A stretch of DNA of 64,000 bases. It comes from an uncultured Bacilli bacterium (GTDB lineage: Bacteria; Bacillota_I; Bacilli_A; RF39; UBA660). The stretch is taken from the NCBI GenBank assembly GCA_934157235.1, contig CAKPHH010000004.1, positions 4,585-68,584 on the forward strand. Direction: 5' to 3'. This document shows positions 27,919-41,464 of the stretch, piece after piece; the stretch's first letter is position 1; each line of letters begins with the position of its first letter. The position numbers and the translations under genes were made by a program. The notes under the pieces are model-generated. The model was not told the origin of the DNA, did no database searches, and worked only from the letters and a program-made list of their open reading frames with translations.

Positions 27919-30234
27919 ATGAAAAATATAGAAAGATATACTCCAGATATAAAATGTGGATTAACTAATTATGAAGTCGATAAAAGAATAAAAGATAATT
28001 TAGTTAATATATATACTGAAGTGGGTACAAAGACTGTTTCAGAAATAGTAAAAGAAAATGTATTAACATTATTTAATATTATTAATGTAGTTTTAGCTAT
28101 TGCCGTTATATGTGTTGGATCATTTAAGAATTTGACATTTATAATAATTATTACAATTAATACTTTAATTAGTATTATTCAAGAACTTAGAAGTAAAAAA
28201 ACTTTGGATAAGTTAAAAGTAGTAGCGGCTTCTAAAGTGCATGTTATTAGAGATTCTATTGAAAAAGAAATTGGAATTAATGAGATTGTTTTGGATGATA
28301 TTATTAAAGTAGAAATAGGTAATCAGATCGTAGTTGATTCAATTATTAAAGATGGAGAAGTTGAAGTTGATGAGTCTTTTATTACAGGAGAAGCTGATAC
28401 TGTTTTTAAAAGAAAGGGTGATATGTTATTATCCGGTAGTTTTATAGTATCTGGTAAGGCAATATGTCAAGTAGAACATATTGGATATGATAATTATACA
28501 GCTAAGATTTCTAGTGATACTAAGTATATTAAAGCAGTTTCTTCAGAGATTATGCGAAGTTTAAATAAGATTATTTCGACAATATCATTTTTAATAGTTC
28601 CGGTAGGTATACTTTTATTTAGTAGACAGATGTATATAGAAGGAAATACAGTTTCACAAGCTGTTGTTTCGACTGTAGCGGCTTTAATTGGAATGATTCC
28701 CGAAGGACTAGTTTTACTTACAAGTACAGTTTTAGCAGTTAGTGTAATTAGACTTTCACAAAGAAAAGTATTAGTTCAAGATTTATATTGTATTGAGACT
28801 TTAGCTAGAGTTGATACTTTATGTTTAGATAAGACTGGTACTATAACTGAAGGTAAAATGGAAGTTATGGCGGAAGTTTTTGTTGAAGATATTAATATCA
28901 GTGAAATAATTGGAAATATTAATTATAATTTAGGAGATAATAATCCAACGGCAATCGCGTTACTTGATAAGTATGGAAAAAGTGATACTTTTGAAATTGT
29001 TGATAAGATGCCATTTTCTTCAGCTAAAAAATATTCGGGTATTGCTTTAAAAGATAAAGCTTATGTTGTAGGAGCAGCAGAGTTTATTTTGAAAAAGGAT
29101 GATAAATTCTTAAAGAAAGTAGAGGAGTATACTAATGAATATCGTGTTATTCTTTTAGCGGAAGCTTTAAATAAGCAACTTGATAATGTTAGACCCTTAG
29201 CACTACTTTTATTACAAGATAAAATTAGAAGTGATGCGAATGAAACATTACAATATTTTAGAGAGCAGGGTGTTGCATTAAAGATTATATCTGGGGACAA
29301 TCCTCATACAGTATATGGAATAGCTTGTAGGGCTGGTTTTAAGGAAAATGCTAAAATAGTTGATGCAACAACACTTGTTACTGATCAGGATATATTAGAT
29401 GCAGCTTGGGAATATGACATTTTTGGTAGAGTTACACCAGAACAAAAGAAAAAACTAGTTTTAGCTTTACAACATTTAGGACATACTGTAGCAATGACAG
29501 GTGATGGAGTTAATGATGTTTTAGCTTTGAAAAAAGCGGATTGTTCAATTGCAATGGCATCTGGTTCTGATTCAACTAAAAATGTTAGTCAACTAGTTTT
29601 ATTAGATTCGAATTTTTCATCTATGCCATATGTAGTAGCAGAGGGGAGAAGAACAATTAATAATATTGAAAAGAGTTCATCATTATTTTTAGTTAAAACA
29701 ATTTATGCGACATTGTTGGCTATAATCTTTATATTTATAGATATGCCATATCCATTTATACCAATTCAGTTGTCTTTAGCAAGTGCTGTTACGGTTGGAA
29801 TACCTTCCTTTATATTAGCACTTCAAGATAATTATGATTTGGTACAGAAGCATTTCTTAAAAAGAGTATTAAAAAGAGCAGTACCTCCAGCTTTTACAAT
29901 TATAATAAATATATTAGTAGTGTTTATTGCTAGTAAATTATTTAATTTTACGTATGAACAAACATCTACTTTATCAGCTGTGATTACAGGGTACGTAGCA
30001 TTTATGTTATTGTTTAAAACTTGTTTACCATTTAATAAGTTAAGAATAGCTTTATTTTCAACTATGGTACTACTATATATTACAGGGTTCTTTGGCTTTA
30101 GAAGTTTATTTTCATTTTCAGTATTGAACTTTAGAATGATAGTAATTATCTTGTTATGTATAGGATTTGCACACTTTATGTACTATTCATTTGAAAAAAT
30201 AATTAATTATTTAGAATCAAAAGTAAGAAAATAG
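27919..30234 (+). CDS. cation-transporting P-type ATPase
   Basis: DKTGTITEG phosphorylation motif, PEGL, TGDGVNDVLAL hinge motif; 771 aa. Confidence 0.9.
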   Translation: MKNIERYTPDIKCGLTNYEVDKRIKDNLVNIYTEVGTKTVSEIVKENVLTLFNIINVVLAIAVICVGSFKNLTFIIIITINTLISIIQELRSKKTLDKLKVVAASKVHVIRDSIEKEIGINEIVLDDIIKVEIGNQIVVDSIIKDGEVEVDESFITGEADTVFKRKGDMLLSGSFIVSGKAICQVEHIGYDNYTAKISSDTKYIKAVSSEIMRSLNKIISTISFLIVPVGILLFSRQMYIEGNTVSQAVVSTVAALIGMIPEGLVLLTSTVLAVSVIRLSQRKVLVQDLYCIETLARVDTLCLDKTGTITEGKMEVMAEVFVEDINISEIIGNINYNLGDNNPTAIALLDKYGKSDTFEIVDKMPFSSAKKYSGIALKDKAYVVGAAEFILKKDDKFLKKVEEYTNEYRVILLAEALNKQLDNVRPLALLLLQDKIRSDANETLQYFREQGVALKIISGDNPHTVYGIACRAGFKENAKIVDATTLVTDQDILDAAWEYDIFGRVTPEQKKKLVLALQHLGHTVAMTGDGVNDVLALKKADCSIAMASGSDSTKNVSQLVLLDSNFSSMPYVVAEGRRTINNIEKSSSLFLVKTIYATLLAIIFIFIDMPYPFIPIQLSLASAVTVGIPSFILALQDNYDLVQKHFLKRVLKRAVPPAFTIIINILVVFIASKLFNFTYEQTSTLSAVITGYVAFMLLFKTCLPFNKLRIALFSTMVLLYITGFFGFRSLFSFSVLNFRMIVIILLCIGFAHFMYYSFEKIINYLESKVRK

Positions 30235-30256
30235 TAAAAACACTTGGTTTTCTTAC

Positions 30257-30480
30257 TTTTTTTATTTATAAGGAATTTTTTCAAAGTAATAATGGTTTTT
30301 AATAAAATGTATGATTTTGTATTGACAAATATTTTCTTGTTTGATATTATGAAATCCGAGAAGCAGTTATTCTGGCTGAAAACTACAATAGATTGAAGTA
30401 AAACAATAGCAAAGTGAGTACGGAAGCGACTATCGAAATTTAAGCTTATGGAAAATAGAAGATACTTTACTTGTGAGAAA
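30257..30480 (+). mobile_element. tnpB-less miniature derivative of the IS200/IS605-family element (left-end segment with promoter fused to right-end/omega-RNA-like segment)
   Basis: 30257-30330 resembles the left end of the full element at 39550-39625 (shared TTTTTTTATTTATAAGGAATTTT, AATAAAAT...TATTGACAAA); 30408-30475 is ~86% identical to 40820-40886 immediately 3' of tnpB. Confidence 0.5.
30322..30350 (+). promoter_or_regulatory. consensus promoter TTGACA-17-TATTAT inside the miniature element
   Basis: Same architecture as tnpB promoter at 39615-39643. Confidence 0.6.
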
Positions 30481-31003: not shown

Positions 31004-31113
31004 TAGATAATTAAACCTTGTTTATCAAGGTTTTTTTGTTTGTTTTTGAAGGTCAATTTCATATTCTTTTTAGGAACTTTTATGGTATAATTTTTAATAG
31101 GAGAGTTGATGCT

Positions 31114-34100
31114 ATGAATGATATGTATTTTGGGTTCTTAAAGAGATTTAATAAAATAAATAAATATTATAATTATTTAATTAAACAAACAAGAAAAAGC
31201 TTTTACGTGGGAATTACAAATGAATGGATAATTGATAATTTTTATTTATTAGCAGAACTTAAAACGGATATTGTTCGTGATAGAGTAGAAATATGTAAAA
31301 GTATAAAAGATACTAAGAATCTTTATTATACCCTTAGGCAGGTAGCAATTTCTAATAATTACAATATTCCTTTTAAAGTATTAGTGGCAGAATTGAAAAA
31401 GTATCAGAAAGATAATAAGATAAATCTTTCATATAGTAAAATTTCAGCTATTAAATATTTATTAGAATTTATTTATATAGAAAAATTATATTTACTTGCT
31501 TTAGATGAAGAAGAAAAACTACTTGTAAAAGAAAAAATTAGTAAAACAATAGATACTTGCAATTTGGATGAAGTAAAATTAAGTACTTTTACTGATAATA
31601 ATTTTGATGTTTATAATAATAAATATTATATTTATGAACTTAGTCAACAAATAAAAAGATTAGGAAATAAAAGTAATTATGTTTTTAAAGAGATAAATGA
31701 ATTGTTAGAGAGTAAAAATATTGGATTAAAGGAAATTATTAATGATTTTCATCAAGAAAAGATTTCTACTAATATTTTAATTTCTAATGTATTTGGAGAT
31801 TTAAAAAGATTATTAGAGCTTAGTGACGAAGAGTTATTTAAAAATGTTTCTTTTACAGAAAAACTATTATTGATGGATAAAGTTTATAAGAGTATGACTA
31901 TTGAATCTAAGGTGCTTTATCGAAGACAAATTACGAAGTTAGCTAAGAGAAAAAGATGTAGTGAATATGAGTTATTAGAAAAGCTTTATGGTATAAGTTT
32001 AAAAGAAGAGAGGCATATTGGTTTTTATTTATTTAAAGAGAAGAATAATATACTTAAAACTTATATATATTTGTTTGTCATTTTAATATTAACTTTAAGT
32101 ATTAGTTTATTTTTATCTAACTATTTTATAGATCTTAGATGGTTGGGATTTTTAATATTACTTATTCCAGTTAATCAATTAGTAATAAGAATTATTAATA
32201 CTATTTTAGTTAGAATAGTACCTATTAATGTATTACCTAAGATGGATTATTCATTAGGATTACCAACTGAAGCAACAACGATGGTTGTAATACCAACTAT
32301 TATTAGTAGTACAGATAAAATTAAAGAGATGTTTGATACTTTAGAGACATTTTATTTGATTAATAAATCTAGTAATTTATACTTTACTTTATTAGGAGAT
32401 GTTAAGGAGTCTTCTAAAGGTGTTGAGGATTATGATAGTAAGTTTTCTTTATATGGAGAAAGTTATGCAGCTAATTTAAATAAAAAATATGGGAAAGATT
32501 TATTTTACTTTGTTTATCGTAAGATATTTTTTAATGATAAAGAGAATAAGTATTTAGGATATGAGAGAAAAAGAGGAGCGTTAATTCAATTTAATAAAAT
32601 ATTATTAGGAAAAGTAACACCTTCTTTTAGTAAAAAGAATTTCTTTGTTAATACTTTGGAAAATAAAAAGCTAAATATTAAATATGTTATTACATTAGAT
32701 ACAGATACGAGATTAGTATTAAGTTCGGCTCTTAATTTAGTAGGAGCTATGGCTCATCCTTTAAATAAACCGATTTTAAATAAAGAAGGTACTAAAGTTA
32801 TTTCTGGATATGGATTAATGCAACCAAGAGTAGATGTAGATATAGAATCTACTAATAAGAGTTTATATAGTCAAATATTTGCAGGAGTAGGAGGCTTTGA
32901 TACTTATTCAGCTTTTGTACCTGATCTTTATCAAGATTTATTTAGAGAAGGTAGTTTTATTGGAAAAGGTATTTATGATTTAGAGGTTTTTGATAAGTTG
33001 TTAGCAGAAACATTTCCAGATAATCTTATTTTGTCGCATGATTTAATAGAAGGTAATTATTTAAGAGTAGGGTATTTAGCTGATATTTCTTTAATAGATA
33101 ATTTTCCATCTTCCTTTTTAACAGATGTTAGAAGACATCATAGATGGGCTCGAGGAGATGTACAAATTATTGGATGGCTTTTAAATAAAGTTTTAAATAA
33201 AAAGAAAGAGAAAGTTAAAAATCCAATAAATGTATTAGGTAAATTTAAAATACTTGATAATATTGTAAGAATGTTTCTATTTCCAACTTTACTTTTAATT
33301 TTACTTTTAGCAACTAATATGAAGTTTAGCAAATCATTATTATGGATTGGGTTTGTAATATTAGAAGTAGCAATTTCAATTATATTTTTCTTTGGAGAAA
33401 AACTAACACAGAAAAATGAAACTAAAAAAGTTACAGTCTATTATAAAAACTTGTTATTGGGAGGAAGAAGTTTGTTATATAGAGCTTATATTACTTTTAT
33501 TACGCTTCCTTTTTATACAGTACTTTATATGGATGCTTTCTTTAGAACTTTATATAGACTTTTTAAGACTCATAAAAATTTACTTAATTGGGTTAGTTCG
33601 GAAGAAGTTTCTAAAAATACAGATAATAGTTTAAAAAGTTATTTAAGACTATTTATTCCAAATTATGTAGTCATAATTCTTCTTATTATTGTTGGTTTGA
33701 TAAGTAATAATTTTATAACTTATATTATGGCTTTTATGTTTTTGACAGCACCATTTATTTTATATTTAGTTAGTTTAGATAAGACTTCTAATAATAAAGT
33801 TAGTGATAATGATTTAGAACAATTAGAAGTATTAGCTTTAGATACTTGGAAATATTTTTATGATAATATAAAGGAAGAATATCATTATTTAATACCGGAT
33901 AATTATCAGGAAAATAGAGAGAAAAAGTTAGATTTAAGAACATCTCCAACAGCGATAGGGTATTCTTTAACTAGTGTTATTTCAGCGTATGAAATGAATT
34001 TTATTGAGTTAGATGAAGCTTTTAATTTACTTGGAGATATTTTGAAGAGTGTTGATTCTTTAGAAAAGTGGAATGGACATTTATATAATTGGTATAATAT

Positions 34101-37100
34101 AGAAAATTGTCAGGTCCTTAATCCTAGATTTGTTTCAACTGTTGATTCAGGTAACTTTATAGCGAGTGTTGTGATAGCAAGAGAGTTTTTAAATAAGTAT
34201 GAAAACTTAGAATTAGTTAAACTTTGTGATAAGTTGATTAATAATGCTAATTTTAAGAAATTATATACGAAGAGATCTGTATTTAGTATTGGGTATGATG
34301 ATAATGAAGGAAAACTTTCAATTTATAATTATAATAATTTTGCGAGTGAAGCTCGTTTAACTAGTTATTTAGCTATTTGTAAGGGTGATGTTTCAGTTAA
34401 ACATTGGTTTTCTTTGGATAAGTCTTTAACAATGTATAAAGGACATAAGGGACTTATTTCCTGGTCTGGTACTTCATTTGAGTATTATATGCCATTTCTT
34501 TTTATGAAGAATTATCCAAATACTTTGTTGGATGAAGCTTATCAGTTTGCTTATTTCTGTCAAAAAAGTTATATAGAAAAGATATCTAAAAAACTGCCTT
34601 GGGGAATTAGTGAATCAGCTTATAATGAACTTGATGATGCCTTAAATTATAAGTATAAGGCGTTTTCGACTCCTTACTTAAAAATGAAAGAAGATAAGGA
34701 TAAGAGAATAGTTATTTCTCCATATGCATCAATTATGGCTTTAGAGTTATTTCCTAAAGAAGTAATTTCTAATATTTCGAAATATAAAGAAATGAATATG
34801 TTTGATAAATATGGTTTGTATGAGTCATATGACTGTGATAATGAGACTTGCGTTAAGGCATATTTTGCTCATCACCAAGGAATGATTTTAATGGGATTAG
34901 TTAATTATTTGAAAGAGGATTCTCTTAAGAATTATTTTCATCAAAATACGTTAATTAAGACTTTTGAAATTTTACTTAAAGAAAAAGTACAATTAAGGAC
35001 AGATATTGATATGAAGATATCAGATTATAAAAAATATAATTATCAAAAAGAAGAAATATCTAATGATATTAGGACCTTTAATTATATTTCGGATATGCCA
35101 GAATTTTCAGTTTTATCTAATAAAAAATATTGTTTACTTATTAATGATAAGGGTAATGGTTTTTCAAGATATAGAACTTTACAATTAAATAGATATCGTA
35201 AAGCTAGTGAACAAGATCATGGAATTTATATGTATATTAGAGATTTAGATACTAATTATGTATGGTCTAATACTTACGCTCCTATTAATAAAAAGAGTGA
35301 TAATTATGAAGTGGTGTTTGCTTCTGATAAGATTAAATATTTAAGAACTGATGGGAAGATTATGACAACTACAGAGATTGTTGTTACTCCTTATCATAAT
35401 GCTGAAATTAGAAAAGTTACTTTTAAGAATAATAGTGATGTTTCTCGGACTTTGGAACTTACAACTTATATGGAAGTGATATTATCAGAAAATATGGATG
35501 ATGTTTCGCATAGGGCTTTTAATAATATGTTTGTTTCTAGTGAATGGGATAGTAAGAGTAATTCTTTGATTATGATGAGAAAAGGTAAGGGAGATTCTCT
35601 TGTTAATAACTATATGGTTAGTAGACTAATTGTTTTAGATCCTATGGATAAATATAGTTATGAAACAGAAAGAAGTAATTTTATTGGTAGAGGTCAAAGG
35701 CTTAATAATCCAATAAGTATTTCTAAAAAACTTAGTAATTATGTAGGAGATAATTTAGACCCTATTAGTAGTATTAGAAATAAAATAGAAATAGCTGCTA
35801 ATGAGAGTAGAGAAGTATACTTTATAGTTGGGTTTGGTAGAAGTAGAGAGCAAATAAGAGAGATTATTAATTCTTATAATACACCTAGAGATATTAATAA
35901 TACCTTTAAATTAGCTTCTTTAAATAATGTTATTAATACTAAGAGTTTAAATATTAAGGGAGAAGAATTAAGACTATATAATATAATGCTTAACTATTTA
36001 TATCAGACAACTAAAATAGCACTTACAGAAGAGAGATTAGATTTATTAAGAAAAAATAGTTTAGCACAACCAGGATTATGGAAATTTGGAATTAGTGGAG
36101 ATAGACCAATTATATTAGTAGATATTAGTGATATAAGTGATTTACCATTTGTTTTTAGTATACTTAAAGCATTTGAATACTATAAAAACAATTCAATATT
36201 TGTGGATGTAGTTATTATTAATAATGAAGGTGAATATAGAGAAGTTATTAATAAAGAGATAGATGATGAGATATATAGAATTTATTCAGTTAATAGTTTT
36301 TATCATACGCCTGGTATTATTAAAGTTATTGATGGAGGAAGTTTATCAAGAGAAGAAATTAGTTTATTTGGAATTGTTCCTAGACTTAGATTTATTATAA
36401 AAGATCATATTACTTTAGAAGAAGCTGTTTTAGAGTTACAAAAGAAGAATAAAATTAGTGATTATGAAGAGAAGTTGTATGAGAAAAATAGCGAAACTTC
36501 TAATTTAGATAAGTTAGAGTTTGATAATGGCTATGGAGGCTTTAAAAATAAGGGAAGGGAGTATGTTATTTATAATAATAAAACTCCAAAGCCTTGGAGT
36601 AATGTTATAGCGAATGAAGAGTTTGGTACTATTATTACTAATAATGGAGCTGGATTTACTTATTTTGATAATTCTTCAGAATTTAAAATAACTTCTTGGA
36701 CTAATGATTTAGTTGTTGATGATTGTTCAGAAGGGTTTAAATTTAATGATTTAATCTTTAAACCAGATTCATGTGTTCATGGAATGGGATATAGTATTTT
36801 AAAGAGTGAGTCAAATGATTTGAAAAAGGAAATTATAGAATTTGTTTCAGTAAATGAACCAGTTAAATTATATTTAGTAAAATTAACTAATAAGACTAAA
36901 TGGAAGAAGAATATTAAAGTTAATTTTTGGATTAATCCAACACTTGGTAATTTTGATGAGAAAACAGCTAGACATATTTTATCGGAGTTTATGGAAGAGG
37001 ATAATTTCTTGAGACTTCGTAATGCTTATAGTATTAATTATAGTGATGTTTATGTTTATATGTCTTCTAGTGAAAAAATTACAAAGGCTTCTTATGATAA

Positions 37101-38763
37101 GATTTTAATTAAGAGTATTGAGAATGATATTGTACTTAATGGAGAAGAAGAGAAGACTTTAATATTTACATTGGGCGCTAATAGAAGTGAATGTATTGGA
37201 GAAGGTTTAGTTAGAAAATATAGTGATATTGAGTATGCTTTAAAGGCTTATGAGAAGGTATGTGAGTATTGGAATGATACTTTAGAAAGAGTTAAGGTTA
37301 AGAGTCCAGATAAGAGTTTTGATTATATGATTAATGGTTGGTACTTATATCAAACTATATCTTCTAGAATTATGGCTAAAGCAGGTTTTTATCAAGTATC
37401 TGGAGCATTTGGTTATAGAGATCAATTACAGGATGCGATGAATATTGTTTTAGTTAGACCAGATATGACTAGAAAACAAATTCTTATAAATGCAGAACAT
37501 CAATTTATAGAGGGGGATGTTTTACATTGGTGGCATGAGGAGAGTAAATTTGGACTTAGAAGTCGCTATATGGATGATTTCTTATGGCTAGTCTATGCAA
37601 CTATTAATTATATTGAAGTAACAGGAGATAGTGATATATTAGAAGTTAAGGTTCCTTATGTTACATGTGATTTACTTGGTACTTATGAATATGAAAAGAC
37701 TATTTATTATAATTATTCTAATAATAGTGATACACTTCTTAAGCATTGTTTTAAATCTTTAAGTTTATCAATGTCTAATTTAGGGAGTCATGGTTTACCA
37801 TTAATGAATGGTGGAGACTGGAATGATGGAATGAATAGAGTTGGTATTAAAGGTAAGGGAGAAAGTGTTTGGTTAGGATTCTTCTTATACAATATTATTG
37901 ATAAATTTATAGAGATGATTAAGGATAATAAACTTAATGTCGATACTTTACTGTATGAAAGGTTTAATGAAAAATTAAGAGATAATTTAAATAAATATGG
38001 TTGGGATAAGGACTATTATTTAAGAGCTTATTTTGATAATGGAGATAAACTTGGTAGTCGTGATAATAGTGAATGTAAGATTGATTTAATATCACAGAGT
38101 TTTTCGATTATATCTTCTGTTGCATCAAAAGAAAGAGGTTTAAAAGTAATTGAGGAAGTTGAGAAGAATTTAGTTGATAGTGATAATGGAATTATAAAAT
38201 TATTAAATCCGGCTTTTAAAAAGTCTTTAAATAATCCTGGATATATTATGAATTATCATGAAGGTATTAGAGAAAATGGGGGACAATATACTCATGCGGT
38301 TAGTTGGTATATCATGGCTTTAATAAAAATGGGATATAGGGAGAAGGCTTATCAATATTATCAAATGATTAATCCGATTAATAGAACTTTAGATAAAGAA
38401 TTAGTTTCTAAATATAATGGAGAGCCTTATGTTATTGCGGCTGATATTTATGCTAATAAGAGTTTTTTAGGACAGGCTGGTTGGACTTGGTATACAGGTT
38501 CTGCAGGATGGTTTTATAATGTGGCTCTTAGAGATATTTTAGGTATTAAGAAATTTGGTAAGAAATTAAAAATAGAACCTAGTTTTCCAGATGGTTGGAA
38601 AGAGTTTAAAATTACTTATATATTTATGGATACTGTTTATAAAATAGAAGTTCATAAAGATGGTAAGGATGAAACTATTGTTGATGGATGTATTCAAAAG
38701 CGTCATAGTATTGAGTTGATTAACGATAAAAAAACTCATGATATTAACATTTATCGAAAATAA
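31114..38763 (+). CDS. cyclic beta-1,2-glucan synthase-like giant protein (membrane glycosyltransferase + GH94 glycoside phosphorylase domains)
   Basis: 2549 aa from ATG 31114 (RBS AGGAGAG; extended -10 TGGTATAAT at 31083-31091); TM segments, glycosyltransferase DxD (TLDTDTRL) and RRHHRWARGD (Q/RxxRW) motifs, C-terminal GH94 signature GGDWNDGMN. Confidence 0.8.
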   Translation: MNDMYFGFLKRFNKINKYYNYLIKQTRKSFYVGITNEWIIDNFYLLAELKTDIVRDRVEICKSIKDTKNLYYTLRQVAISNNYNIPFKVLVAELKKYQKDNKINLSYSKISAIKYLLEFIYIEKLYLLALDEEEKLLVKEKISKTIDTCNLDEVKLSTFTDNNFDVYNNKYYIYELSQQIKRLGNKSNYVFKEINELLESKNIGLKEIINDFHQEKISTNILISNVFGDLKRLLELSDEELFKNVSFTEKLLLMDKVYKSMTIESKVLYRRQITKLAKRKRCSEYELLEKLYGISLKEERHIGFYLFKEKNNILKTYIYLFVILILTLSISLFLSNYFIDLRWLGFLILLIPVNQLVIRIINTILVRIVPINVLPKMDYSLGLPTEATTMVVIPTIISSTDKIKEMFDTLETFYLINKSSNLYFTLLGDVKESSKGVEDYDSKFSLYGESYAANLNKKYGKDLFYFVYRKIFFNDKENKYLGYERKRGALIQFNKILLGKVTPSFSKKNFFVNTLENKKLNIKYVITLDTDTRLVLSSALNLVGAMAHPLNKPILNKEGTKVISGYGLMQPRVDVDIESTNKSLYSQIFAGVGGFDTYSAFVPDLYQDLFREGSFIGKGIYDLEVFDKLLAETFPDNLILSHDLIEGNYLRVGYLADISLIDNFPSSFLTDVRRHHRWARGDVQIIGWLLNKVLNKKKEKVKNPINVLGKFKILDNIVRMFLFPTLLLILLLATNMKFSKSLLWIGFVILEVAISIIFFFGEKLTQKNETKKVTVYYKNLLLGGRSLLYRAYITFITLPFYTVLYMDAFFRTLYRLFKTHKNLLNWVSSEEVSKNTDNSLKSYLRLFIPNYVVIILLIIVGLISNNFITYIMAFMFLTAPFILYLVSLDKTSNNKVSDNDLEQLEVLALDTWKYFYDNIKEEYHYLIPDNYQENREKKLDLRTSPTAIGYSLTSVISAYEMNFIELDEAFNLLGDILKSVDSLEKWNGHLYNWYNIENCQVLNPRFVSTVDSGNFIASVVIAREFLNKYENLELVKLCDKLINNANFKKLYTKRSVFSIGYDDNEGKLSIYNYNNFASEARLTSYLAICKGDVSVKHWFSLDKSLTMYKGHKGLISWSGTSFEYYMPFLFMKNYPNTLLDEAYQFAYFCQKSYIEKISKKLPWGISESAYNELDDALNYKYKAFSTPYLKMKEDKDKRIVISPYASIMALELFPKEVISNISKYKEMNMFDKYGLYESYDCDNETCVKAYFAHHQGMILMGLVNYLKEDSLKNYFHQNTLIKTFEILLKEKVQLRTDIDMKISDYKKYNYQKEEISNDIRTFNYISDMPEFSVLSNKKYCLLINDKGNGFSRYRTLQLNRYRKASEQDHGIYMYIRDLDTNYVWSNTYAPINKKSDNYEVVFASDKIKYLRTDGKIMTTTEIVVTPYHNAEIRKVTFKNNSDVSRTLELTTYMEVILSENMDDVSHRAFNNMFVSSEWDSKSNSLIMMRKGKGDSLVNNYMVSRLIVLDPMDKYSYETERSNFIGRGQRLNNPISISKKLSNYVGDNLDPISSIRNKIEIAANESREVYFIVGFGRSREQIREIINSYNTPRDINNTFKLASLNNVINTKSLNIKGEELRLYNIMLNYLYQTTKIALTEERLDLLRKNSLAQPGLWKFGISGDRPIILVDISDISDLPFVFSILKAFEYYKNNSIFVDVVIINNEGEYREVINKEIDDEIYRIYSVNSFYHTPGIIKVIDGGSLSREEISLFGIVPRLRFIIKDHITLEEAVLELQKKNKISDYEEKLYEKNSETSNLDKLEFDNGYGGFKNKGREYVIYNNKTPKPWSNVIANEEFGTIITNNGAGFTYFDNSSEFKITSWTNDLVVDDCSEGFKFNDLIFKPDSCVHGMGYSILKSESNDLKKEIIEFVSVNEPVKLYLVKLTNKTKWKKNIKVNFWINPTLGNFDEKTARHILSEFMEEDNFLRLRNAYSINYSDVYVYMSSSEKITKASYDKILIKSIENDIVLNGEEEKTLIFTLGANRSECIGEGLVRKYSDIEYALKAYEKVCEYWNDTLERVKVKSPDKSFDYMINGWYLYQTISSRIMAKAGFYQVSGAFGYRDQLQDAMNIVLVRPDMTRKQILINAEHQFIEGDVLHWWHEESKFGLRSRYMDDFLWLVYATINYIEVTGDSDILEVKVPYVTCDLLGTYEYEKTIYYNYSNNSDTLLKHCFKSLSLSMSNLGSHGLPLMNGGDWNDGMNRVGIKGKGESVWLGFFLYNIIDKFIEMIKDNKLNVDTLLYERFNEKLRDNLNKYGWDKDYYLRAYFDNGDKLGSRDNSECKIDLISQSFSIISSVASKERGLKVIEEVEKNLVDSDNGIIKLLNPAFKKSLNNPGYIMNYHEGIRENGGQYTHAVSWYIMALIKMGYREKAYQYYQMINPINRTLDKELVSKYNGEPYVIAADIYANKSFLGQAGWTWYTGSAGWFYNVALRDILGIKKFGKKLKIEPSFPDGWKEFKITYIFMDTVYKIEVHKDGKDETIVDGCIQKRHSIELINDKKTHDINIYRK

Positions 38764-38812: not shown

Positions 38813-39511
38813 ATGAAATTTATAGTTTCAGAAGAATTTTTTGAGAAGGTTCCAAATGCGTATTTTGGAATAGTTTATTTTAATAATTTTGATAACAAAA
38901 CTAAATTAGACTTTACAGATAAAATGTTAGAAGAAGCTATTGAGAGTGCTAGAGAAAGACTTGGTGAAGGTCGTGTAAAAGAAAATACTTTAATCATTCC
39001 TTATCGTGAGGCATTTAAGAATTTAGGAATTAATCCTAATAAATTCATGTGTTCAATAGAAGCTTTAATGACTAGAATTTCTAAGGGAGGGGAAATACCT
39101 CATATTAATCCAATTGTTGATATATGTAATGCTTTATCTATTAAATATATTTTACCTGTAGGTGTACATGATGTAGCTAACTTTAAGGGTGATTTAGAGA
39201 TAAGAGGTGCAGTAGCAGAAGATACATTTGTTTCTTTTGGAAGTGAAGAAGTTGAACATCCAGATGTAGGAGAAGTTGTGTATGTTTCTGGTAATGAAGT
39301 AAAGACAAGGAGATGGACTTGGAGACAAGGTGAAAAAAGTAAAGTTACAGAAGAAACTAGTCATATCTTTGTACCAATAGATGGATTTACTGATGTTAAT
39401 AAAGAAGAAGTAATTGCTTTACAAAAAGAATTAGTAGAAATACTTAAATCTTTAGGAATAGAAGCAGTTGTTGATTATGTTGATAAAGATAAAAGAAGTT
39501 TTGAAGTATAA
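38813..39511 (+). CDS. B3/B4 tRNA-binding-domain protein
   Basis: Sequence pattern of PheT B3/B4-like standalone domain; RBS GGAG; extended -10 TGTTATAAT at 38784-38792; terminator AGCAAAC/GTTTGCT + T8 at 39526-39558. Confidence 0.55.
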   Translation: MKFIVSEEFFEKVPNAYFGIVYFNNFDNKTKLDFTDKMLEEAIESARERLGEGRVKENTLIIPYREAFKNLGINPNKFMCSIEALMTRISKGGEIPHINPIVDICNALSIKYILPVGVHDVANFKGDLEIRGAVAEDTFVSFGSEEVEHPDVGEVVYVSGNEVKTRRWTWRQGEKSKVTEETSHIFVPIDGFTDVNKEEVIALQKELVEILKSLGIEAVVDYVDKDKRSFEV

Positions 39512-39614
39512 AATTATTAAAATAGAAGCAAACGTAGTGATATGTTTGCTTTTTTTTATTTATAAGGAATTTTCTCTTCGAATGTGTAATTAGAATAAAA
39601 TATGCTATTGCATA

Positions 39615-39643
39615 TTGACAAACGTTTGTTTGTATATTATTAT
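39615..39643 (+). promoter_or_regulatory. tnpB promoter TTGACA-17-TATTAT within IS left end
   Basis: Perfect -35, 17-nt spacer, TATTAT. Confidence 0.6.
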
Positions 39644-39672
39644 AGTAAGTCAAGATGATGGAGGTGTATTAC

Positions 39673-40803
39673 ATGTATAAAGCCTATAAGTTTAGATTGT
39701 ATCCTAATAGTTATCAAAAACAACTGCTAAGTAAAACTTTTGGTTGTGTTAGACTTATTTATAATTATTTTTTGGATAAGTGTATGAAAAGTGGTTTTAT
39801 AAGGGCTTTTGACATGTGTATAGAAATAAAAGAATTGTATGCTGAGTATCCATTTTTGAAAGAAGTAGATTCTTGCAGTTTAAGATGTGCAGTTTTTAAT
39901 TTAGAGGATGCTTTTAAGAATTACTTTTCTAAACGTAGTAATTATCCTAGGTTTAAGAGTAAATATAATAAACAAAGTTATAGAACTACATGTATTAGGA
40001 GTACATATAAAAATAGAGAATATAGTAATATAGAATTAGATTTAGTAAATAAAAAAGTTAAATTACCCAAACTGGGATTAGTTGATATAAGAGGTTATAG
40101 AACTTTAAAAGAGATAAAGGGAAAAATTATAAATGCAACTATTGAAAAAGAAACAACTAATAAATACTATGTAAGCATTGTAGTTGAAGAAAAAGAGTTT
40201 GGACTCAGTAAAGTTACTCCACAAAGTATAGTTGGGATAGACTTAGGCATAAAAGATTTAGTAGTAACTAGTGATGGAGAAAAATATAATAATCCAAAAG
40301 AGTTATTAAAAAGAGAAAAGAGATTAAAAAGACTACAACGGAAGCTAGCGAGACAAATAAAGGGTAGTAATAACTATTACAAGACTAAAGAAAGAATCGC
40401 TAGAATTTATAGTAAAATTAAAAATAGTAGAAAACATAATATAAATAATATTGTAAATAAACTTGTAAAAGAACATGATATAGTAGTTAGTGAAAAACTA
40501 AAAGTACAAGAAATGACACATAATCACAATTTAGCCAAAAATATTTTAGATGCCAGTTTCGATAAAATATGTCAAATGCTCAAATGGAAATGCAGTGTAT
40601 TAGGAAAATATTATTATCAAGTAGATACATATTTTCCAAGTAGTAAGAAATGTAGTCATTGTGACAATACAACAAGTAAAACGAATGATTTGAATGTTAG
40701 AAACTGGATATGTGATAAGTGTGGATGTGAAAATGATCGAGATATAAATGCAAGTATAAATATTATGTTTGAAGGATTAAAAATGTATTATCAAAGTAAT
40801 TAA
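39673..40803 (+). CDS. tnpB: TnpB (IS605 OrfB) RNA-guided nuclease-like protein
   Basis: N-terminal KAYKFRLYPNSYQKQLLSKTFGCVRLIYN, RuvC-like core, C-terminal zinc finger CSHCDNT...CDKCGCENDRDINASINI; RBS GGAGGTG. Confidence 0.85.
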   Translation: MYKAYKFRLYPNSYQKQLLSKTFGCVRLIYNYFLDKCMKSGFIRAFDMCIEIKELYAEYPFLKEVDSCSLRCAVFNLEDAFKNYFSKRSNYPRFKSKYNKQSYRTTCIRSTYKNREYSNIELDLVNKKVKLPKLGLVDIRGYRTLKEIKGKIINATIEKETTNKYYVSIVVEEKEFGLSKVTPQSIVGIDLGIKDLVVTSDGEKYNNPKELLKREKRLKRLQRKLARQIKGSNNYYKTKERIARIYSKIKNSRKHNINNIVNKLVKEHDIVVSEKLKVQEMTHNHNLAKNILDASFDKICQMLKWKCSVLGKYYYQVDTYFPSSKKCSHCDNTTSKTNDLNVRNWICDKCGCENDRDINASINIMFEGLKMYYQSN

Positions 40804-40804
40804 A

Positions 40805-40915
40805 TAAATATGAATAAATAAAGTGAGTACGGTAGCGACTATCGGAATTTAAGCCTATGGAGAATAGAGGATACTCTATCTATGAAGTAGGAATTTTGAT
40901 CGGTGACGACCAAAG
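40805..40915 (+). ncRNA. IS right end / candidate omega-RNA (reRNA) scaffold plus adjacent guide region
   Basis: Conserved block AAAGTGAGTACGGTAGCGACTATCGGAATTTAAGCCTATGGAGAATAGAGGATACTC directly 3' of tnpB, repeated at 30408-30475; followed by terminator GACAAAT-ttta-ATTTGTC + T4 (40917-40940). Confidence 0.35.
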
Positions 40916-40987
40916 CGACAAATTTTAATTTGTCTTTTGTTCGGAAATGTGGTATAATTTAGAACGTTTGAGGGGGATAAGGATATT

Positions 40988-41464
40988 ATGATAGAAAGTA
41001 GTCGTTATGAAATAATTGATTCAATAGGAAGAAATTGTATAGCAGTACCTATTTATGCAGATGAAGGTAGATTAGAGGATCGAACTTTACATGAAAAAGA
41101 TTTTGATGAATGTATGAAAACAAGTATTATAACAGCAATTCGTTATGATTTAGAACTTGTAGGAGTACAAATTATTGCTTCAGAAAATGGTAGAAAAAGA
41201 ACAACTGATTATTATATTGGAGATGTTGCGGCAGTTGATGCTGAAGGTAGACCAAGTAGAGTTAGAGTTGGACAATTCAGTTATGGGGCTGGAGACTTTA
41301 GATCTTATGCTGATGTTGGCTCTAGAAAACATAGTATAGAAATTTGTCCTGGAAGAGTTTCTTTAGCGAAAAAATGTGCTCAAATATTAGAATTGCCATA
41401 TATTTTTCCACTTGAAGAAGTAACTAAAAGAGAAGTACCAAAGGAGAAAGTATTGAAACGTTAA
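40988..41464 (+). CDS. hypothetical protein (158 aa), GC-richer than surroundings
   Basis: RBS GAGGGGGA; extended -10 TGTGGTATAAT upstream; terminator TAGCC-gaaa-GGCTA + T7 at 41469-41491. Confidence 0.5.
   Translation: MIESSRYEIIDSIGRNCIAVPIYADEGRLEDRTLHEKDFDECMKTSIITAIRYDLELVGVQIIASENGRKRTTDYYIGDVAAVDAEGRPSRVRVGQFSYGAGDFRSYADVGSRKHSIEICPGRVSLAKKCAQILELPYIFPLEEVTKREVPKEKVLKR

Follow-up and report, generated by a model that had tools for sequence, protein, structure and literature searches.

The question raised by this locus is what occupies the roughly 1.39 kb between the terminator of one gene and the promoter of the next, where exactly it begins and ends, and why it lies directly behind a terminator. 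The window (the whole stretch of DNA analysed, 64,000 nucleotides of contig CAKPHH010000004.1, assembly GCA_934157235.1, from an uncultured Bacilli bacterium) carries at about 39558-40942, on the + strand, an element of about 1.385 kb which is, with high confidence, a non-autonomous insertion sequence (IS) of the IS200/IS605 family with the tnpB-only 'IS1341' organisation. The sole gene between its left (LE) and right (RE) ends is tnpB, which starts 115 nt after the left boundary and stops 139 nt before the right one, and the same arrangement was found in all related full-length copies. On every feature tested, the element qualifies for the IS200/IS605 family, IS1341 group, and it is an ordinary, intact-looking TnpB-only insertion sequence: comparison of an empty with the occupied site gave no target duplication, there are no terminal inverted repeats, and insertion took place 3' of a short motif. 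The RE has a clear, covarying subterminal hairpin, and two small hairpins at 39599-39633 are candidates for that of the LE. A preliminary description, made from the letters of the window, had proposed a tnpB-only IS200/IS605-family element, an identification borne out by Pfam and NCBIfam matches and by alignment with ISDra2 TnpB. The span it gave, 39550-40940, had to be adjusted: the element is real, but the T-run at 39550-39557 belongs to the host, and the ends now fall at about 39558 and 40942.

The ends were placed by alignment of three independent full-length insertions, the one in the window and paralogues about 92% identical at two other genomic sites (L006 and L007/L008), together with one empty site in a related species. 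Homology among the three insertions begins at the T-run, TTTTTT(A/G)TTTATAAGG, continues through the hairpin at 40917-40934 and is lost only past ...GACAAATTTTAATTTGTCTTTTGTTC (...GTCTTTTGTTC) at 40942. Since independent insertions stay homologous through this hairpin, it lies inside the element. The element thus finishes with ...TTTTGTTC, the last base being 40942, and on the left it borders the host T-run on its 3' side, with A39558 as the first non-T base. A pattern scan of species-representative genomes and metagenomes gave 65 further loci, in assembled genomes of uncultured Bacilli, 'Tenericutes' and Candidatus Onthousia, with TnpB proteins 56-100% identical to that of the window in the subfamilies that supplied the junctions. 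The 51 distinct right flanks all diverge directly past GTTC, and 25 distinct left junctions were collected.

The empty site was found in a contig without the element (L065), which comes from another organism and carries an 82%-identical orthologue of the downstream gene. It reads ...GGCAAACATGGTGTTAGTGTTTGC-TTTTTTT-GGGAATTTATGATATAAT..., as compared with ...AGCAAACGTAGTGATATGTTTGC-TTTTTTTT-[ATTTATAAGG...CTTTTGTTC]-GGAAATGTGGTATAAT... in the window; in short, GTTTGC-T7-GGGAATTT...TATAAT when empty and GTTTGC-T8-[element]-GGAAATG...TATAAT when occupied, with zero target duplication. Since L065 has the hairpin and the T7, both are host sequence, namely the intrinsic terminator of the B3_4-domain gene. 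The search for an empty allele suggested in the preliminary description yielded a junction in a related species, a T-run followed by the flank. Within the same species no empty-site allele was seen, every contig either having the element or breaking inside it; the empty allele at the site in the window is expected to read GTTTGC-T7/8-GGAAATGTGG.

The open reading frame (ORF) at 39655-40803 codes for 382 aa counted from its first ATG, the length given before; the ORF exists, but the likelier start is ATG 39673, 8 nt past the GGAGG at 39660-39664, which gives 376 aa. An exact-sequence look-up of the 382-aa form found no match, and the 376-aa form was matched: it is used exactly by public gene calls and recorded in 14 human-gut metagenome contigs. 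The protein profile search that had been advised was run and matched HTH_OrfB_IS605 (5e-16), OrfB_IS605 (6e-28) and Cas12f1-like_TNB (5e-17), all above the gathering cutoffs of Pfam. The NCBIfam model guided_TnpB scored 293 bits (cutoff 100), and the narrower IS200_TnpB model 373 bits, under its cutoff of 425. Residues 3-369 align with ISDra2 TnpB (8bf8, E=1e-61), placing D190/E274/D357 opposite D191/E278/D361, and C327/C330/C347/C350 are present, in agreement with the RuvC-like core and C-terminal CxxC...CxxC recognised earlier. Since the RuvC D-E-D triad and the zinc-finger cysteines are conserved, the nuclease is apparently intact. The closest annotated relative is a tnpB of an Enterococcus plasmid, 42% identical. 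An IS607-type element was rejected, as the IS607_TnpB model gave 169 bits against a cutoff of 350, the IS200-type model scored far higher, and there is no adjacent recombinase gene.

In the LE, the two small hairpins lie at 39599-39616 and 39618-39633 (DNA fold), and the second has arms, GACAAA/TTTGT, similar to those of the RE hairpin. Co-variation of LE and RE hairpins between subfamilies was compared by eye and not established. The TTGACA-17-TATTAT promoter is conserved in all aligned copies; with its near-consensus match it is shown as a predicted strong promoter that would drive the intact tnpB. Two left-end copies had been reported in the window, and nhmmer found exactly two, at 39558-39681 (E=8e-20) and at 30264-30385 (E=7e-9), and no others.

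One trait of the family is unusual: its copies are almost always found directly after the T-run of a host terminator. Both left ends in the window had been described as starting at such a T-run, and indeed T8 39550-39557 and T7 30257-30263 each follow a hairpin, that at 39524-39557 having a DNA fold of -8.8 kcal/mol (z=-6.0). Among the 25 independent left junctions, a T-run of at least five precedes 23 (median 6-7, range 3-8), and the 3' arm of a hairpin abuts the T-run at 21. Since the abutting hairpins all differ in sequence, they are host sequence. The median fold energy was -6.8 kcal/mol at the left junctions and -1.8 kcal/mol at all T-runs of six or more (T6+) in the window (p=1e-4). The shared target preference suggested earlier thus holds, and since L065 has the T-run without the element, the other option offered, that the end of the element imitates a T-run, need not be invoked. 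The terminator with its T8 run is the insertion target and the presumed transposon-adjacent motif (TAM); the element is flanked by this T-run on the left and by the next gene's extended -10 promoter on the right. The economical explanation is that a T-run is targeted and that insertions survive only between genes, the T-runs there being mostly terminators.

A further possibility is that an unseen transposase recognises the hairpin together with its T-rich tail, so that terminators are picked as pseudo-right-ends and not as mere T-runs. This was judged unlikely. A hairpin abuts 84% of the junctions, as against 54% of those T6+ runs of the window that lie between genes (binomial p=0.002), and the target geometry (hairpin and about 7 T) resembles the RE of the element (hairpin and 8-nt TTTTGTTC). 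However, relative to intergenic runs the enrichment is modest (Mann-Whitney p=0.04) and could result from selection against insertion elsewhere, and at least three junctions (L012, L006/L069, L070) have no convincing hairpin. In addition, IS200/IS605 transposases use a short motif, and a 4-5-nt motif suffices in canonical IS608 target choice. Group IIC introns likewise insert just downstream of the stem-loops of Rho-independent terminators (PMC7923331), so that terminator stem-loops do serve as targets of mobile elements; these introns are ribozymes and retroelements of an unrelated type, and the analogy is functional, confined to target choice. No literature was found on terminator-targeting IS200/IS605 elements or on a poly-T TAM. 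Structure-directed targeting is compatible with the T-run explanation and adds a new target rule to it. If true, TnpB would use a poly-T TAM, any host terminator would be a potential landing pad, and any excision scar would be a TnpB target.

A tnpA gene was also searched for. It is absent from every copy, and the gap between LE and tnpB is about 100-115 nt in most, and up to about 190 nt in a few subfamilies. With two Y1 TnpA queries (IS608 and IS200), tblastn gave no credible match, neither in the window nor among the related loci (about 84, about 0.5 Mb), which is a weak negative, and the earlier remark that no tnpA is present stands within this scope. About 75% of tnpB genes have no tnpA nearby and are thought to be mobilised in trans (PMC10055086), and autonomous movement of tnpB-only IS1341-type elements is an open question in the literature (PMC9956272). 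The + strand is richer in G (0.19) than in C (0.092), the top strand of the element being the G-rich one; it was taken as the lagging-strand template, an orientation that would fit the known bias of the family. That the family has moved recently follows from a related assembled genome (CAKPJN01) with six protein-less copies of 352 bp, 94-98% identical, located at six different sites, each behind a different terminator. They keep the LE, the whole RE and, from the tnpB 3' end, about 115 nt, and look like intact palindrome-associated transposable elements (PATEs).

These copies also bear on the alternative that the copy in the window is domesticated or a fossil, either an immobile tnpB kept by the host, for instance as a guide-RNA-directed repressor like the nuclease-dead TnpB-like repressors (TldRs), or one that has not yet decayed. 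It would account for a fixed insertion with a 100% identical protein in many samples, for the negative search for tnpA, and for the -35-like TTGTCT that the element end gives to the promoter of the downstream gene. Nevertheless, it was considered quite improbable. The RuvC triad and the zinc finger are intact, unlike those of TldRs, and a TldR identity was rejected on these grounds; many independent insertions and recent bursts of mini copies are found in the same family. At the same locus in other samples (L055/L056), tnpB was called as 329 aa, without the N-terminal helix-turn-helix and frameshifted or truncated, which is expected of a selfish element and not of a host gene, and suggests decay of the fixed copy in some of the population.

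The RNA partner of TnpB was looked for downstream of the gene. Beyond the tnpB stop, an AT-rich spacer leads to the invariant core GAGTACGGTAGCGACTATCGGAATTTAAGCC, and the RE was matched twice in the window by nhmmer, in the main copy (E=5e-36) and at a second locus (E=2e-14), 40820-40885 and 30411-30476 being 86% identical. RNAalifold on 36 related copies gave 26 pairs, 8 of them with compensatory changes. The covarying columns include 236/245 (AU:22 GC:12), 237/244 (AU:20 GC:15) and 268/282 (GC:14 UA:14 AU:7). The stem ATAGAG/CTCTAT becomes ATAAGG/CCTTAT or ATAAAA/TTTTAT in other copies, TTTTGAT...CCAAAG is found elsewhere as CCTTGG...CAAGG or CTTAGG...CTGAG, and the closing CCTA/TAGG helix is CCTG/CAGG in L032. 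This covariation among copies shows the last ~120 nt of the element as a predicted structured RNA scaffold, in line with the earlier assignment of the block 3' of tnpB. The fold prediction recommended for this region was uninformative on the single sequence (z=-1.3), and the argument rests on covariation, which supports the stems. RNAalifold missed the terminal hairpin, whose length varies in the MAFFT alignment; when 34 distinct terminal sequences were folded separately, all formed a hairpin at this place with differing stem sequences, according to the subfamily GACAAAT.., GAAATAAAAT.., GAATTAAAAC.., AAAGCAC.. or GCAAAAT... The RE always ends in GTTC and is usually T-rich there. Several independent internal-deletion copies retain the last 35-50 codons of tnpB, which fits an omega-RNA starting inside the gene; the scaffold probably begins further upstream, within the tnpB 3' end. 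Rfam, searched over the whole window with gathering thresholds and over 39400-41100 with E<=10, gave no family for the scaffold, only chance snoRNA matches.

In TnpB systems the RE is followed directly, on its 3' side, by the guide (PMC8612924, PMC10055086). With the RE boundary at 40942, the guide here would be the host flank from 40943, presumably 40943-40962, and the TAM would be the motif 5' of the LE, that is, the T-run. The arrangement put forward in the preliminary description, with a scaffold at 40805-40915, an internal guide of 16-30 nt between scaffold and hairpin, and a terminator hairpin at 40917-40940 defining the RNA 3' end, is almost certainly wrong, since, although a hairpin followed by TTTTGTT does exist at 40917-40941, both it and the supposed guide region are common to independent insertions with different flanks, 40886-40916 is a conserved stem that covaries between subfamilies and not a variable segment, divergence starts only past 40942 in 51 flanks, and the terminator scan did not flag the hairpin. 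The features assigned are collected in Table 1.

Table 1. Coordinates in the window of the element, its parts and the adjoining host features.
Feature	Position	Strand	Details
Terminator-like hairpin and T7 after the P-type ATPase gene	30226..30263	+	Host; left junction of the mini copy; T7 at 30257-30263
Decayed tnpB-less mini derivative	30264..30476 (right limit ~30476)	+	LE and promoter 30264-30385; 5' half only of the RE, 30411-30476
Host intrinsic terminator of the upstream B3_4-domain gene	39524..39557	+	Hairpin 39524-39549 and T8 39550-39557; flagged by terminator scan
Left end (LE)	39558..39672	+	Terminal motif ATTTATAAGGAA, A-rich stretch, two small hairpins; homology among independent insertions, nhmmer E=8e-20
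Sigma-70-type tnpB promoter	39615..39643	+	TTGACA-17-TATTAT, 11/12 consensus match; ribosome-binding site GGAGG at 39660-39664
tnpB	39673..40803	+	376 aa, RNA-guided endonuclease by homology; RuvC D190/E274/D357; zinc finger C327, C330, C347, C350
Right end (RE), predicted omega-RNA scaffold core	40820..40942	+	Invariant GAGTACGGTAGCGACTATCGGAATTTAAGCC, three covarying stems, terminal hairpin, TTTTGTTC terminus
Subterminal RE hairpin	40917..40934	+	GACAAATTTTAATTTGTC = GACAAAT-TTTA-ATTTGTC; then 8-nt terminus TTTTGTTC (40935-40942)
Predicted omega-RNA guide segment	40943..40962	+	Host flank GGAAATGTGGTATAATTTAG; from the TnpB rule; overlaps the extended -10 of the downstream gene

Taken together, a mobile TnpB-only element would work here as follows. 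By analogy with the known TnpB mechanism, the transcript would run through the RE into the flank, and the resulting omega-RNA would carry a guide of about 16-20 nt equal to the sequence from 40943 onward. TnpB with this RNA would recognise the scarless excision joint, where a T-rich TAM meets the guide match, and cut it, and the cut would force recombinational repair from the sister copy, keeping the element in place. For movement to new sites, a Y1 TnpA would have to be provided in trans; it would act on the top strand in single-stranded form and insert the element 3' of a T-run, and most surviving insertions would lie at terminators, these being the intergenic T-runs.

Some observations weigh against this picture. 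A transposase that moves the family was not found in the ~0.5 Mb of related sequence, and no hairpin of the LE stands out clearly as the one for TnpA binding. In all readable contigs of this species the insertion is fixed, and current activity at this locus is unproven. The RE hairpin with its U-rich tail resembles a weak terminator and could cut the read-through into the guide. As for the boundaries, the left one is uncertain, being resolved only to within 1-2 T. At the right one, T is the +1 position after GTTC in 44 of the 51 flanks; this T could reflect a preferred target or could itself be the final base of the element, and insertion may take place within, not after, the T-tract.

Compared with ISDra2 TnpB/omega-RNA of Deinococcus radiodurans (PDB 8bf8/8exa/8h1j), the protein shows full-length homology, the same size class and conservation of D/E/D and CxxC..CxxC, in an alignment that is distant; the scaffolds are unrelated at the DNA level. 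As in ISDra2, a structured RNA is predicted at the tnpB 3' end and RE, and the guide is expected from the 3' flank (PMC8612924). In contrast, ISDra2 has tnpA and the TAM TTGAT, while the element in the window is without tnpA and its presumed TAM is the T-run. With the IS1341 group (PMC9956272) it shares a single tnpB between the ends, a length of 1.25-1.4 kb, subterminal hairpins (clear at the RE, candidate ones in the LE), and the absence of inverted repeats and target duplication; in contrast, this family is confined to assemblies of uncultured gut Bacilli ('Tenericutes', Candidatus Onthousia-like) and stands consistently next to terminators. Protein-less PATEs often carry omega-RNAs, and the six 352-bp copies are similar to those of Geobacillus stearothermophilus in being protein-less, in keeping LE and RE with the predicted omega-RNA, and in being multicopy in one genome (PMC10055086).

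The element fits the textbook layout and in itself matters little. TnpB-only insertion sequences are among the commonest bacterial genes. What the locus offers is a cleanly delimited case in a lineage of uncultured gut Bacilli, for which an empty site, numerous independent junctions and an RNA scaffold with covariation are at hand. The predicted T-rich (poly-T) TAM would lend a compact genome editor a convenient specificity, and the consistent placement after terminators is a testable case of how single-strand transposons reach harmless landing sites.

The second locus in the window is placed between the terminator of the P-type ATPase gene and a tRNA Ile-Asn-Glu-Ser cluster, upstream of the cluster, and the same mini copy in the same context was found in metagenome contig L077. 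It is a fossil, a decayed internal-deletion derivative of the same family. The TTGACA-17-TATTAT promoter is retained, while of the distal stem, terminal hairpin and GTTC terminus nothing recognisable is left. A PATE-like derivative, or miniature inverted-repeat transposable element, with both ends was considered for 30264-30476 and rejected, since its RE covers only model positions 4-69 of 128; unlike PATEs, it is without the distal half of the RE. It is probably neither mobile nor a source of working guide RNA.

Some related loci showed rearranged copies. An apparent second empty site was not used: the right flank of L041 has a match in L012, but the locus is rearranged and differs by a likely toxin-antitoxin module. 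The stretch of L012 (oriented) at ~1886-2470 is a two-gene cassette, likely toxin-antitoxin, with an element copy on one side and a T-run site on the other; in the orthologous locus L041 that site holds a mini copy, and the arrangement suggests an element-mediated deletion or rearrangement. From ~1462 in L011, the right flank consists of the 3' part of a further tnpB, which matches sequence from inside L012, L038 and others, in a nested or tandem arrangement whose junction is not a T-run. Two contigs of sample ERZ27287290 have swapped flanks: L005 joins the left flank of the window and an identical tnpB to a variant right-end hairpin and a different right flank, and L060 joins a diverged tnpB 3' end to the right flank of the window. 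Either recombination of two copies or an assembly jump between repeats would give this result.

Across the right junction, a hybrid promoter can be read at 40930-40958 (+), formed by the -35-like TTGTCT from the 3' arm of the terminal hairpin and, after a spacer of 17 nt, by the host's TG-extended TATAAT for the downstream gene. Where the element is absent, the terminator and T-run overlap the -35 position, which indicates that a compact pair of terminator and promoter was split by the insertion; a TATAAT begins exactly 11 nt past the RE in 4 of 51 distinct flanks. The downstream gene (40988-41464, +, 158 aa) has no Pfam domain and four homologues among 5.8 billion proteins, all in close relatives, and by this distribution it is classed as a lineage-restricted orphan. 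Between the two element copies, 31018-38763 (+) is a single ORF of 2581 aa (2549 aa in public calls) with Glycoamylase and GH94 domains. Finally, a full-length ornate large extremophilic (OLE) RNA was found at 7523-8129 (+), matching Rfam RF01071 with 383 bits (gathering threshold 50) over positions 1-616 of the 616 in the model.

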